Below, in pieces: positions 46,558-50,571 of a stretch of 64,000 nucleotides of DNA. The stretch is from the NCBI GenBank assembly GCA_035315125.1, contig DATFYI010000164.1:444-64443 (forward strand), in the 5' to 3' direction. How positions within the stretch are numbered: position 1 is the first letter of the stretch; each line of letters begins with the position of its first letter. Made by a program: the position numbers and the translations under genes. The notes under the pieces were generated by a model. That model ran no database searches, had not been told where the DNA came from, and saw only the letters and a program-made list of their open reading frames with translations. The DNA is from Anaerolineaceae bacterium. Its GTDB lineage: Bacteria > Chloroflexota > Anaerolineae > Anaerolineales > Anaerolineaceae.

Positions 46558-48546
46558 TTATTTCACTCTCTTAGCAACACATAGGTCAACCCCATCACGA
46601 TCGACCGAATAAGCGATCGGGTATTGGGGGTAATACAGTTCATGATCAAAGCGCATGGGTAAAGTGATCAGGCTTCCGGCAGGGTAAGGAACAATCTCGG
46701 GATTAATCACGGTAATATTTTTATTGGCGTACAAATTAACCAGGCCAGGATTGGAATCTGCATAGACATTTATCTGACCCTTCTCGCTTGCGTTGATTTG
46801 TTGCGTCAGTTTCTTATAGCAGGTCAGCCATACATCTATTTCGTATTTGTAAGCGGCGCCCTTGACTCCTCCAACCATTGAATTGTAATAGGTATACTCG
46901 TACGGATGTAGCTGGACGTTGGCCAGGAAACCCGGGAAAAGGATGGCAAGCATGAGCAACCCATTCATCCAGGCTCTCTTTGTTTTTTGGAAAATGAAAT
47001 TGATCGATAAAGCTGAAAATAAAAATGCCCCCGGCATGATAAAGAGCAATTGGCGATAATTATCATAGATATTGGGTGTGGTAATCACAACATAAAAGAA
47101 TGGCAAAAAAAACCAGACCAACGGAATGAGAATTTCGGTTCGGCTGATTTCTTTCTTTGTGAAACGGTAAACAGAAACGATCACCCCCAGCACAATTAAT
47201 AGAACGGCAGGCTCTGTCAGTGATATTGCCAATAGGGTGGGCAAATAAGAGGCAGGTAAAGCACGTGAATCATAGAATCGACCCCCAAACAGAACGGTGT
47301 GGGGATCTGGAAAATCTGTGATGTTCAAAATACCGGCTATAAGATGCGGCAGGGTATCTTGCCAGAGATAAGGCCAGGATAGGAAGAAGACGAGAAATGA
47401 GGCCAGACCGTAAAACACGATCAATGGAATTGATTTCTTTTTCAGGTTAATCACCCAAACCCATATCACCAGAAGAGCTGCAAATGGACCGACTGTGCGG
47501 GTGGCGCTTGCAAAAGCCAGAAAAACGCATGCGCCTATAAAACTGGCTATAAATGCTTTTTTGTGGGGATAATTCGCATAATTGTTTACAAGTCCGGCCA
47601 GGAAATTGTAAAGGGAATTGAACTGTTTATTAAAAAATGGCTGGAACCAGAAGTAAATAATAACAATCAAGTAAAGCAGGGTGATAACCAAGAACCAGCC
47701 CAATAGCTGATTGAAAATGGTGGTGACTTTGACAGCGTAATTAGCCAAGGGCAGGTTGGATGCATGATGGGCAAACTTGACAAAGAGCCTATCCATAAAA
47801 TTGGCTGGGTGCTTAATATTAATTGACAAAATAGTATTGGTAATCAATCTCCGAATAGCGTCTGCCGCAATTTCCAGTATCAGCGCAAGCAGTCCCAGGA
47901 CAATACCGAAAACAGCCGCCGTCTTTGCCCTTTTTGTGTGAACAGTGCTTTTTTGAACGGGGTTCATCTGCACATCTTGCTCTGGTCGGGCCTGATCTCT
48001 AAAAACAAGGCGGGCTTGATCGGAAAAGGCAAGACCAAAATAAACAGCCCCCAGGAAAAAGACCATAAAGGGCATATCTTTCGGGTCGAACCAGGACAGG
48101 CCAAAAAAGACCGGTTGGCTGGCGAAGAGCAGCGTTGAAATGGCGGCGGCGCTGGTGCTGACCCAGCGTTGGGCTAATTTATAAAAAAAGAATATCCCCA
48201 GTAAAAAAGAGAAATAAACGATCAGATGCCAGATATCGATTGAAAGCGCCTGTGGAAAAATTAATGAAAGCAGGGCATGAATCCCGTATCCGACGATGAA
48301 AAAAGGTTGGCCATAATGTCGATAAAAATTTTGATAAACTCCCGAGCCGGGATTGGTATAGGCGCTCAGTGTAATTCCGCCAAAAAAGTAATAACTGGGT
48401 TCATCATAACTGGCGCTGAAATCTTGAAAGATCAGAAACCCCAGGATAATTCCAAATAAAAGGATAACAATAATTGGAAAATTACGATGGCGAGTAAACT
48501 TTTGTATTCGATGCATATCGAAACGGTTTCTTTGGGGAGGCAACAT
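46558..48546 (-). CDS. GT-C fold glycosyltransferase (family 39 / ArnT-PMT-like)
   Basis: 662-aa polytopic protein with YDEPSYY in the first loop (DE motif of PMT/ArnT-type enzymes). More AT-rich than its neighbours. Confidence 0.6.
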   Translation of the reverse strand: MLPPQRNRFDMHRIQKFTRHRNFPIIVILLFGIILGFLIFQDFSASYDEPSYYFFGGITLSAYTNPGSGVYQNFYRHYGQPFFIVGYGIHALLSLIFPQALSIDIWHLIVYFSFLLGIFFFYKLAQRWVSTSAAAISTLLFASQPVFFGLSWFDPKDMPFMVFFLGAVYFGLAFSDQARLVFRDQARPEQDVQMNPVQKSTVHTKRAKTAAVFGIVLGLLALILEIAADAIRRLITNTILSINIKHPANFMDRLFVKFAHHASNLPLANYAVKVTTIFNQLLGWFLVITLLYLIVIIYFWFQPFFNKQFNSLYNFLAGLVNNYANYPHKKAFIASFIGACVFLAFASATRTVGPFAALLVIWVWVINLKKKSIPLIVFYGLASFLVFFLSWPYLWQDTLPHLIAGILNITDFPDPHTVLFGGRFYDSRALPASYLPTLLAISLTEPAVLLIVLGVIVSVYRFTKKEISRTEILIPLVWFFLPFFYVVITTPNIYDNYRQLLFIMPGAFLFSALSINFIFQKTKRAWMNGLLMLAILFPGFLANVQLHPYEYTYYNSMVGGVKGAAYKYEIDVWLTCYKKLTQQINASEKGQINVYADSNPGLVNLYANKNITVINPEIVPYPAGSLITLPMRFDHELYYPQYPIAYSVDRDGVDLCVAKRVK

Positions 48547-48652: not shown

Positions 48653-49399
48653 TCAGTTGAATGCGAACAGGGCTCCTTGCGAAATGGGCGTCAGATAGGC
48701 GCATTGTTCTAAAGTGAGATAGATTCCGTCTACCTGATTCCTGGTTGCCCTGTATTCCCTTGCGTGTTCTTCTGACCAGAAGAATACCGAATTCCGTCAG
48801 TAAGAATCGATGATCGTTCGCCCGGTGAAATGTTCCCAATCAACATCTGGCATAAATACCAATGCCCGCGCGTCCTGCTCATGCACTGAAAATTGCATGC
48901 CACTATCTACGGTAATATGCAGGATCTGATTGCAGTGTTTACAATTTGTTTCTATTTCAACCGATAGCCATGCGTTTCGTAATTGTCCTTGCACGAAGGA
49001 CGCCGCCAGTGCGTCCTCTGCTCAGGCACCGTACAATTGTTCCCCTGAGCTGAATTTCAAATGGTGAGGTGTAGGCTCCACCGTCAGCGGGTAGGCCCAG
49101 GCGACGGCGTTTTGCTCGTTTCGCGCCAGAAAGAAAAGCTTACTTTCCAGCTCTTCCAAAATCTGCTGAACGGATTCGAGCGGTAATTTCAACTTTTCGG
49201 CGATATACTCCGGCTCTAAAGGCATTTGCCTGTCTACCAGTTCTTTGACTACAAAATACCGCACTCGCTGGTGTGCATCTGTCATGAACGCTAACCTTTC
49301 CTGGCTATGTTCTGGAATTTGCGTCAGATGCTTTTTCCAGGAGTCCTGTGGTATTTCCAATATTTGCCGGCCTCGTCCAAGCAAAATCTTTTCATCCAT
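48653..49399 (-). CDS. MerB (alkylmercury lyase) family protein with two in-frame TGA codons at the catalytic Cys positions; candidate double selenoprotein
   Basis: Three co-linear same-frame segments (49399-49025, 49021-48800, 48796-48656) are separated only by TGA at 49024-49022 and 48799-48797. LYGA-TGA-AEDAL aligns with MerB LYAWCALDTL (Cys96/Asp99). SY-TGA-RNSVFFWS aligns with FCCHVHFFAS (Cys159). Each TGA is followed by a hairpin. Confidence 0.6.
48767..48784 (-). promoter_or_regulatory. SECIS-like hairpin after the second in-frame TGA
   Basis: RNA UUCUUCU-GGUC-AGAAGAA. The GGUC tetraloop begins 19 nt after the UGA; E. coli fdhF has 18 nt and a GGUC loop. Confidence 0.5.
48996..49018 (-). 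promoter_or_regulatory. SECIS-like hairpin after the first in-frame TGA
   Basis: RNA GAGGACGC-ACUGGCG-GCGUCCUU, an 8-bp stem starting 3 nt after the UGA. It can be redrawn with a bulged A and a UGGC loop. Confidence 0.4.
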
Positions 49400-49421
49400 C
49401 CCGATTCCCTCCAATTCTGGT

Positions 49422-49781
49422 TTAGTCCGGCGGGTTTACCTCAAACATGCGGTGGCTGGCATCCGCCCCATAATCCATCCCATATATTTGCTTAATTGCC
49501 GTAATCTTTTCCAGGGTCTCTTCACTGAAAGCGGATTTTCCTTCGAAGGCATGCAGCACAATTCCTTCCAGAAGATCTCCCAGCGATAGATCCAGATATT
49601 CGGCCAGGGCTTTGAGCACTTTAAGCATTCTCTCTTCAATTCGAACGCCCGTCTGGACTCGTACAACCTGATATTTGTGGGAATTCAATTCGTGCGGACT
49701 ATTTTCTTTGGACATATCCCTGACCTTTTTGCTATTTGCGACTCTTTGGCGCAGAATGTTATTTTGGTACAATGATAACAT
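49422..49781 (-). CDS. hypothetical protein upstream of the merB-like gene
   Basis: ORF ends 22 nt before the merB-like ATG. A likely start is the ATG at 49715 (MSKENSPHE...). No motif recognised. Confidence 0.45.
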   Translation of the reverse strand: MLSLYQNNILRQRVANSKKVRDMSKENSPHELNSHKYQVVRVQTGVRIEERMLKVLKALAEYLDLSLGDLLEGIVLHAFEGKSAFSEETLEKITAIKQIYGMDYGADASHRMFEVNPPD

Positions 49782-49998: not shown

Positions 49999-50571
49999 AT
50001 GAGAAAAGTGGTTGCATCGGAGTACGTGTCATTGGACGGCGTGATGGGTGATCCAGGTGGCGGCGATAAAACCAGGCGCGGCGGTTGGAGCTTTCAATTC
50101 TGGAATGATGAAGCGGCCAGGTTTAAATTCGACGAGCTGTTTGCCAGCGACGCTTTGCTGCTGGGGCGGGTAACCTATGAAGGTTTCGCCAAAGCCTGGC
50201 CGAGCATGAAGGACGAAGCGGGTTTTGCCGACCGTATGAACAACCTGCCCAAGTACGTCGTTTCCAAAACGCTGGACACGCTTATCTGGAACAATTCAAG
50301 ACTGATCACCGGAAATATTTCCGAGGAAGTGACCAAACTGAAGCAGGAAGCCGGGCAGGATATCCTGCTGGCCGGCAGTTCCAGGCTTTTTCAAACCCTG
50401 ATGCAGCGCGACCTGATCGATGAGTACCGGCTGATGGTGCATCCGGTCGTGCTGGGGGAAGGGAAGCGGCTCTTTGGCTCTGAAAGCGATATGAAGGTAT
50501 TGCGGCTGGTAGATACGAAACAGTTCAGTTCAGGTGTGCTGGTGCTGACTTACGAGCCGGTACGTATGTAA
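49999..50571 (+). CDS. dihydrofolate reductase family protein (RibD C-terminal-like)
   Basis: MRKVVASEYVSLDGVM...LLLGRVTYEGFAKAWP...ILLAGSSRLFQTLM...YRLMVHPVVLGEGKRLF. Confidence 0.8.
   Translation: MRKVVASEYVSLDGVMGDPGGGDKTRRGGWSFQFWNDEAARFKFDELFASDALLLGRVTYEGFAKAWPSMKDEAGFADRMNNLPKYVVSKTLDTLIWNNSRLITGNISEEVTKLKQEAGQDILLAGSSRLFQTLMQRDLIDEYRLMVHPVVLGEGKRLFGSESDMKVLRLVDTKQFSSGVLVLTYEPVRM

Follow-up and report, generated by a model that had tools for sequence, protein, structure and literature searches.

The stretch of DNA analysed here, 64,000 nucleotides (nt) from an Anaerolineaceae bacterium (contig DATFYI010000164.1 of assembly GCA_035315125.1; hereafter the window), carries on its minus strand a gene for a MerB-like protein whose reading frame contains two TGA codons. 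We propose that it encodes an enzyme of MerB fold with a Sec126-Asp129-Sec201 site, in which each UGA would be recoded as selenocysteine (Sec) by its own in-frame Sec insertion sequence (SECIS) hairpin: GUCCUU-CGUGC-AAGGAC (SECIS-1) for the first codon, UGA-1, and UUCUUCU-GGUC-AGAAGAA (SECIS-2) for the second, UGA-2. We place the probability of this reading at about 0.88. Sec insertion and SelB binding are predicted at both codons, mainly from the comparison of the gene with its relatives.

A MerB-like protein with two conserved UGA codons

Read with translation table 11, the gene is interrupted by TGA at codons 126 and 201, and it becomes a single open frame when TGA is read through. The resulting protein of 248 amino acids (aa) belongs to the MerB family both by profile, with a match to Pfam PF03243 (MerB) at 64.3 bits for a cut-off of 27, and by fold. 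Its AlphaFold2 model has a mean predicted local distance difference test score (pLDDT) of 95.2 and a predicted template modelling (TM) score (pTM) of 0.91, and MerB or MerB2 accounts for every one of the best 11 Foldseek matches of this model in the PDB, ten of them crystal structures (target-normalised TM-scores of 0.74-0.81) and one a nuclear magnetic resonance model (0.61). When PDB sequences are aligned with the family profile, UGA-1 falls on MerB Cys96, the aspartate three residues further on Asp99 and UGA-2 on Cys159. The Sec126-Asp129-Sec201 positions are thus those of the Cys96-Asp99-Cys159 site of MerB: the aspartate is retained and both cysteine positions are UGA, presumably Sec.

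Narrower models do not claim this protein. The NCBIfam MerB equivalogs NF009710 and NF033555 score 50 and 43.6 bits, under their cut-offs of 193 and 200, the SaoL model NF040728 scores 60.9 bits, under its cut-off of 140, and no model in NCBIfam 20.0 has a cut-off that the protein reaches. The protein also displays a conserved CxxC motif (T-x-C-A-H-C-G; C153 and C156, window 48932-48943, minus strand), in which C153 is invariant and C156 nearly so. In the neighbourhood of this position MerB has one cysteine, Cys117.

To describe the family, species-representative genomes were scanned, which gave 463 relatives, of which the best 80 were analysed. Metagenomes hold at least 475 relatives, and a scan of them in which more distant members served as seeds supplied about 80 further loci for analysis. 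The comparison set holds 161 relatives from genomes and metagenomes, or 162 sequences with that of the window. Genome relatives belong mainly to Chloroflexota (Anaerolineae, Ktedonobacteraceae) and Acidobacteriota, with a few in Desulfobacterota, Gammaproteobacteria and other groups, and soils and sediments are the main sources of the family. The median nucleotide identity among genome-derived relatives is 58%.

Both UGA codons are conserved across this set. Codon 126 is TGA in 155 of the 162 sequences, the others having TGC (five), TGT (one) and TCG (one), while codon 201 is TGA in 160, with one TGC and one TGT. TGA stands at both sites in 80/81 genome-derived sequences, the window included, and in 75/81 metagenome loci. 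Replacement codons therefore specify cysteine or, at site 1 only, serine, and never tryptophan; the Cys homologues are L048 and L102-L106 for site 1 and L154 and L163 for site 2.

The hairpin following UGA-2

A sequence-only reading of the window had drawn, 3′ of the second TGA, a 7-base-pair (bp) stem capped by a GGUC tetraloop that begins 19 nt after the UGA. This hairpin is present on the minus strand exactly as drawn: UGA-2 is followed by 12 nt, then UUCUUCU (48784-48778), GGUC (48777-48774) and AGAAGAA (48773-48767), which together encode the peptide F-F-W-S-E-E. Its 18 nt, UUCUUCUGGUCAGAAGA(A/G), are near-invariant despite the median identity of 58%. All seven pairs are formed in 155 of the 160 UGA-bearing sequences, 99.6% of alignment cells pair, and the loop is GGUC in 159/160.

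Conservation extends to synonymous positions. The two Phe codons are UUC UUC in 155/160 sequences and UUC CUC in the remaining five, so that every Phe codon in the stem is UUC (315/315), and the Ser codon is UCA in 159/160. Outside the hairpins, Phe, Ser and Glu codons vary freely across the same gene. In the clade L102-L106 (five sequences) the fourth pair has changed from U-A to C-G, with loop and spacing unchanged, through a double change: UUC has become CUC, which replaces Phe by Leu, and GAA has become GAG, a synonymous change. Moreover, Ser is encoded by UCG only in the site-2 Cys forms L154 and L163, the latter having also UUU and GAG. A longer version of the stem, pairing columns 13-15 with 34-36, was considered and rejected as not conserved. 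This invariance at synonymous sites in 160 UGA-bearing relatives, together with the compensatory pair in one clade, agrees with the SECIS function first suggested from the letters of the window, and we regard the second hairpin as a well-supported SECIS candidate, predicted to direct Sec insertion at UGA-2.

The hairpin following UGA-1

For the first site the comparison points to another element than the one initially drawn. The conserved SECIS candidate of UGA-1 is GUCCUU-CGUGC-AAGGAC, with 26 nt between the UGA and its loop; in most relatives it takes the form (CG)CCCUU-CGUGC-AAGGG(CG). Its five-pair core is intact in 154 of the 155 UGA-bearing sequences and its loop is CGUGC in 145/155. Pair 25-39 exchanges between C-G, U-A (three sequences, including the window) and U-G. 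The codons that compose it are close to fixation: ACG 39/41, CCC 68/75, UUC 80/80, GUG 79/81, CAA 71/74 and GGG 77/81. Natural revertants are informative here, as SECIS-1 is lost, by one to three of its five pairs, in 6 of the 7 sequences without TGA at site 1. The only one that keeps it is L048, which is close to the Sec forms. In the clade L102-L106, which has Cys at site 1, SECIS-1 is gone and SECIS-2 is retained.

The hairpin previously drawn at this site reads UGA-1, GCA, GAGGACGC (49018-49011), ACUGGCG, GCGUCCUU (49003-48996). As a description of the window it was accurate: the 8-bp stem exists and is the minimum free energy (MFE) structure of the naked RNA, at -12 kcal/mol when folded alone, its pair probabilities being 0.77-0.99. 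The GUCCUU segment of its 3′ arm also belongs to SECIS-1, and the two structures are mutually exclusive. That UGA-1 has this hairpin as its functional SECIS, either by itself or as the lower portion of a composite structure, would be in keeping with its being the most stable local structure in the window and with the six or seven of its eight pairs that can form in many relatives. Yet only 75.2% of cells pair over the set, and all eight pairs occur together in 2 of the 155 sequences. Of 81 relatives, 75 do not form pair 11-25 and about 35-38 lack each of the pairs 9-27 and 14-22, and the codons of the hairpin vary freely between synonyms (GAG/GAA 41:33, GAC/GAT 45:35). A distance of 11-13 nt separates its loop from the UGA, outside the spacing of 16-37 nt given by the bacterial SECIS consensus of bSECISearch (PMC13188914, Fig. 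2); the sequence-only reading had already found it less convincing for this reason. In addition, its 5′ arm would sit inside the ribosome when UGA occupies the A site. We consider it very unlikely that this window-specific stem serves as the SECIS.

Folding from a point that leaves out the upstream nucleotides does not switch the RNA to SECIS-1; a UUCGUG/UACGAA pairing with a GCGU/ACGC stem appears instead. This pairing (48975-48997, minus strand; A2 columns 28-33 with 44-49) can form in 83.5% of cells. UUCGUG takes in the loop of SECIS-1 and some of the 5′ arm, and the Leu codon at +14 is TTA in 55/79 sequences. As a candidate element it was set aside: no compensatory change accompanies it, and it cannot coexist with SECIS-1.

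Synonymous constraint, folding energy and the SECIS consensus

Among 168 informative codons, the ten with the least synonymous entropy belong without exception to two stretches, +5 to +9 after UGA-2 and +7 to +12 after UGA-1. Likewise, the lowest five-codon windows are all in the two hairpins, at 0.12-0.15 against a gene-wide median of 0.92, and the lowest of all is SECIS-2. Single-sequence folding tells another story. Shuffle z-scores are -1.1 to -1.7 for folds that begin shortly ahead of each UGA and 0.0 to -1.0 for those that begin with the UGA itself, so neither hairpin is exceptional by this test, and MFE prediction, which at site 1 returns the hairpin as initially drawn, at site 2 picks pairings other than SECIS-2. 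As these scores are unremarkable, the case that the hairpins exceed chance is carried entirely by the comparison with relatives. The earlier suggestion that hairpins 3′ of both UGA codons favour recoding is strongly supported by that comparison, with the amendment that the first is a different hairpin and that the folding energies are ordinary. Compensatory changes in orthologues, which had been proposed as a check, are found in SECIS-2 (the U-A to C-G pair) and as exchanges at pair 25-39 of SECIS-1, and the hairpin first drawn at site 1 is not conserved.

The modest z-scores are also what a decaying pseudogene would give, the hairpins being then chance structures of a coding region. Against this stand a frame that is otherwise intact, two TGA codons whose places in the gene are identical in 155 of the 162 sequences, which come from several phyla, a strongly conserved protein with a confident fold, and hairpins that hold the most constrained synonymous sites of the gene. 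The comparative data effectively refute a pseudogene.

Another proposal is that the conserved islands have a function apart from recoding, for instance in an antisense transcript, a DNA-binding site or mRNA stability, their proximity to the UGA codons being a coincidence. SECIS-2 is indeed almost without variation, so that its structure is deduced mainly from invariance, and at site 1 the UUCGUG/UACGAA alternative is available. However, both islands fold with a G-U loop at a distance from the UGA typical of SECIS elements, changes in the stems are compensatory or wobble, and of the seven relatives with Cys or Ser at site 1, six have lost SECIS-1. A coincidence of this kind seems to us improbable in the extreme, and SECIS function remains the explanation that we retain for both islands.

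Both candidates fall within the geometry of the same consensus, which in addition to the spacing gives a loop of 3-9 nt and a stem of 4-16 bp (PMC13188914, Fig. 2). SECIS-2 has a 4-nt loop, 7 bp and a spacing of 19 nt; SECIS-1 has a 5-nt loop, 5-7 bp (6 in the window) and a spacing of 26 nt. The consensus further describes a G at loop position one or two, usually with G or U as the next base, and an MFE no higher than -7.5 kcal/mol (PMC13188914). The loop G is present in both elements, through GGUC and CGUGC at the frequencies given above, and both hairpins lie in the coding region, 3′ of an in-frame UGA that aligns with cysteine in homologues.

Decoding of UGA and the Sec pathway of the host

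Public gene calls at first sight speak for a decoding of UGA independent of SelB, by near-cognate or suppressor reading as Trp or Cys or through a change of code, with hairpins that would merely stimulate read-through or pausing. Indeed, the full-length homologues in databases (P0002-P0028; L190:114-860) have W at both Sec positions. However, P0004 can be translated from its own contig only if TGA is taken as W, and for this reason the W is a gene-caller artefact, code 4 having been chosen on contigs of roughly 1 kb, and not tryptophan. On longer contigs the gene call is truncated, as for P0033. Moreover, the family occurs in many phyla where TGA is a stop. In the window itself TGA ends 7 of 24 long open reading frames (ORFs); inspection by eye shows the true stop codons of the relatives to be TAG or TAA in most cases. 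The substitutions at the two sites, to Cys or, at site 1, to Ser and never to Trp, also argue against a decoding without SelB, the exchange of Sec and Cys being the hallmark substitution of selenoproteins.

The genome carries selB (350 bits), selA (548 bits) and selD (364 bits), all above their cut-offs. The selD gene (L010, C21:16405-17340) has an in-frame TGA of its own in an NCAG-U-ASKL motif, followed by a hairpin GGCGCA-AGUUC-UGCGCC with a spacing of about 32 nt from UGA to loop. The loops GGUC, CGUGC and AGUUC of the three candidate elements all contain G-U and present N-G-U at the loop start. About 1.2 kb upstream of the selA locus lies an S-adenosylmethionine riboswitch (RF00162, 85.6 bits; L009:808-921, minus strand, contig C117).

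The piece that is missing, and that a SelB-independent reading can invoke, is the tRNA-Sec gene (selC). It was found in the own assembly (91% complete, 345 contigs) neither by ARAGORN at default settings, nor with the Rfam model, whose best matches are tRNA-Ser, nor by blastn with the tRNA-Sec genes of four relatives. With relaxed thresholds ARAGORN gave low-confidence SeC calls in this assembly, which we do not trust. All four of the better-assembled genomes that carry an orthologue have tRNA-Sec, at 67-74 bits. Since a Sec-type selD cannot work without selC, incompleteness of the assembly is the likeliest reason for the gap. With selA, selB and a Sec-type selD in the genome, we hold a decoding of these codons without SelB to be most unlikely, and Sec insertion directed by the two hairpins the preferred reading.

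Evidence at variance with the proposal

Together with the tRNA-Sec gap, several results weigh against the proposal that each UGA is recoded by its own SECIS hairpin. The pairing probability of SECIS-1 on naked RNA is close to zero, as it is outcompeted by the stem initially drawn at this site. The core hairpins of the window are weak when taken alone (-5.1 kcal/mol for SECIS-2 and -5.3 kcal/mol for SECIS-1). With flanking bases they reach -7.4 and -6.8 kcal/mol, at or just short of a threshold for which the consensus model does not state the stretch used to compute the energy; in orthologues, SECIS-1 hairpins mostly have -8.2 to -11.8 kcal/mol. The Rfam models give no match in the region even at E = 10.

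Other reservations concern SECIS-2. The homologue L189, a Cys form (S..C), still has UUC UUC UGG UCA GAA, so that the expected relaxation of codons is absent there. The FFWSE peptide is kept in Cys forms too, and part of the constraint therefore acts at the level of the protein. As the stem is near-invariant, its support consists of synonymous conservation and of one compensatory pair, which probably represents a single evolutionary event.

Proposed mechanism and possible function

According to the model we favour, a complex of SelB, GTP and Sec-tRNASec would bind the unpaired G-U in each apical loop, and as the ribosome brings the UGA into the A site, Sec would be delivered. For the first site, the model should account for the competing stem. 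On the ribosome, the mRNA channel covers the nucleotides just 3′ of the A-site codon. At decoding, the first 12 nt or so after the UGA would be inside the ribosome, and since the 5′ arm of the competing stem, which occupies nt 4-11 after the UGA, falls within this channel, that stem should melt on the approach of the ribosome. Melting would release GUCCUU from its 3′ arm and allow SECIS-1 to form.

The substrate is most likely an organomercurial or another organometallic compound. Because a Sec-Asp-Sec site is predicted on a MerB fold, protonolysis of the metal-carbon bond is our best guess for the reaction. Selenolates bind mercury much more tightly than thiolates and are better nucleophiles; they should accelerate Hg-C cleavage, yet hold Hg(II) more tightly. 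Beyond this, we would tentatively entertain a broader picture, to which we give rather less than even odds: a widespread and undescribed Sec-Asp-Sec organometallic lyase of Chloroflexota, Acidobacteriota and other bacteria of soils and sediments, which would work outside mer operons and might, for instance, demethylate methylmercury independently of mer or act on other organometal(loid)s. The two SECIS elements of its mRNA would have evolved separately, one of them locking the codons of the active-site-proximal FFWSEE, so that protein and RNA each limit change in the other.

SECIS elements of bacteria are difficult to identify, and comparative support as extensive as this is available for few of them. 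Here the two elements of one mRNA can be read directly from conservation at synonymous sites, natural Cys revertants serve as controls, and the comparison has corrected the location of the first. Sec at both mercury-ligand positions of MerB would bear on mercury-selenium antagonism, as well as on the long-standing question of methylmercury demethylation without mer operons in anoxic soils and peat. It also appears that a common family has been missed by annotation pipelines and selenoproteome surveys, its members being truncated in databases or given W at both sites.

Genomic context

Features are located in Table 1. The ATG start agrees with the N-termini of relatives and is preceded by a ribosome-binding site, read from the sequence. 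The 119-aa ORF upstream has no Pfam family. Among 80 orthologous loci, 10 (Ktedonobacteraceae, Acidobacteriaceae, Anaerolineales) have a homologue of it immediately ahead of the MerB-like gene, and it is possible that this small protein is a partner or regulator of the MerB-like gene. Its core, VRVQTGVRIEERMLKVLKALAEYLDLSLGDLLEGIV, has a ribbon-helix-helix-like appearance. When flanking ORFs of the 80 loci were clustered with one another, without identification by family, this small upstream ORF was the only recurrent neighbour.

Table 1. Positions in the window of the MerB-like gene, its UGA codons, the hairpins and the upstream ORF
Feature	Position	Strand	Remarks
Coding sequence of the MerB-like protein	48653..49399	-	248 aa and a TGA stop at 48655-48653; predicted Sec126 and Sec201
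ATG start	49399	-	
Ribosome-binding site GGAGGG	49407..49412	-	7 nt ahead of the ATG
UGA-1	49022..49024	-	codon 126
Hairpin initially drawn, GAGGACGC-ACUGGCG-GCGUCCUU	48996..49018	-	window-specific; excludes SECIS-1
SECIS-1 candidate, GUCCUU-CGUGC-AAGGAC	48985..49001	-	conserved element after UGA-1
UGA-2	48797..48799	-	codon 201
SECIS-2 candidate, UUCUUCU-GGUC-AGAAGAA	48767..48784	-	7-bp stem
119-aa ORF	49422..49781	-	22 nt upstream of the MerB-like gene, same strand

The MerB-like gene has neither a mer nor a SAO neighbourhood, and no MerA above the family cut-off is found in the genome. Two neighbours are not related to mercury: a protein with a RibD_C domain (49999-50571, plus strand; 93 bits) and a membrane protein of 662 aa with a weak match to the PMT_2 glycosyltransferase family (46558-48546, minus strand).

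Comparison with known systems

The sequence-only reading had noticed a likeness between the second hairpin and the SECIS of E. coli fdhF, and this holds. The fdhF element, whose sequence was verified (100% identity to fdhF in more than 5400 E. coli genomes), consists of UGA, 11 nt, GGUUGCA and GGUC, with the loop at 18 nt. SECIS-2 thus shares with it the GGUC tetraloop, a 7-nt 5′ arm and an in-frame position 3′ of a Sec UGA, its spacer being one nucleotide longer, with the loop at 19 nt. It differs in forming a perfect A/U-rich helix of 7 bp without the bulged U of the fdhF upper stem, a feature of SelB recognition in E. coli. SECIS-1 also lacks the bulge, and departs further from fdhF by its 5-nt CGUGC loop and its distance of 26 nt from the UGA.

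At the protein level, MerB (PDB 3F0P, 5C17; PF03243) has the same fold, and its three active-site positions align with those of the MerB-like protein at an identity of about 16-17%. The differences are the predicted Sec in place of both cysteines and the absence of a mer operon. In the literature that could be searched, including deep-Sep and BSepDB, no MerB family with two Sec residues is described, and the closest described relative is SaoL. SaoL (NF040728) is a MerB-like organometallic lyase and selenoprotein; its single Sec forms part of a CU motif that corresponds to Cys159/160, it keeps Cys at the Cys96 position, and it is encoded in the nine-gene SAO locus of strict anaerobes (Haft and Gwadz, bioRxiv 10.1101/2022.07.06.499078). 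Two other sources also give it one Sec (PMC13188914, PMC9312934). Both proteins have a MerB fold and Sec, here predicted, at the Cys159 position, and both are truncated or mistranslated in databases. Unlike SaoL, the MerB-like protein would have Sec at both positions, the second in a Y-U-R context without an adjacent Cys, and apart from the small ORF upstream in some loci its gene has no conserved neighbourhood. In kind, the two predicted hairpins do not depart from other bacterial SECIS elements; the novelty lies in a family of MerB-like proteins with two Sec positions, and in an unusually clean comparative case for both of its elements.

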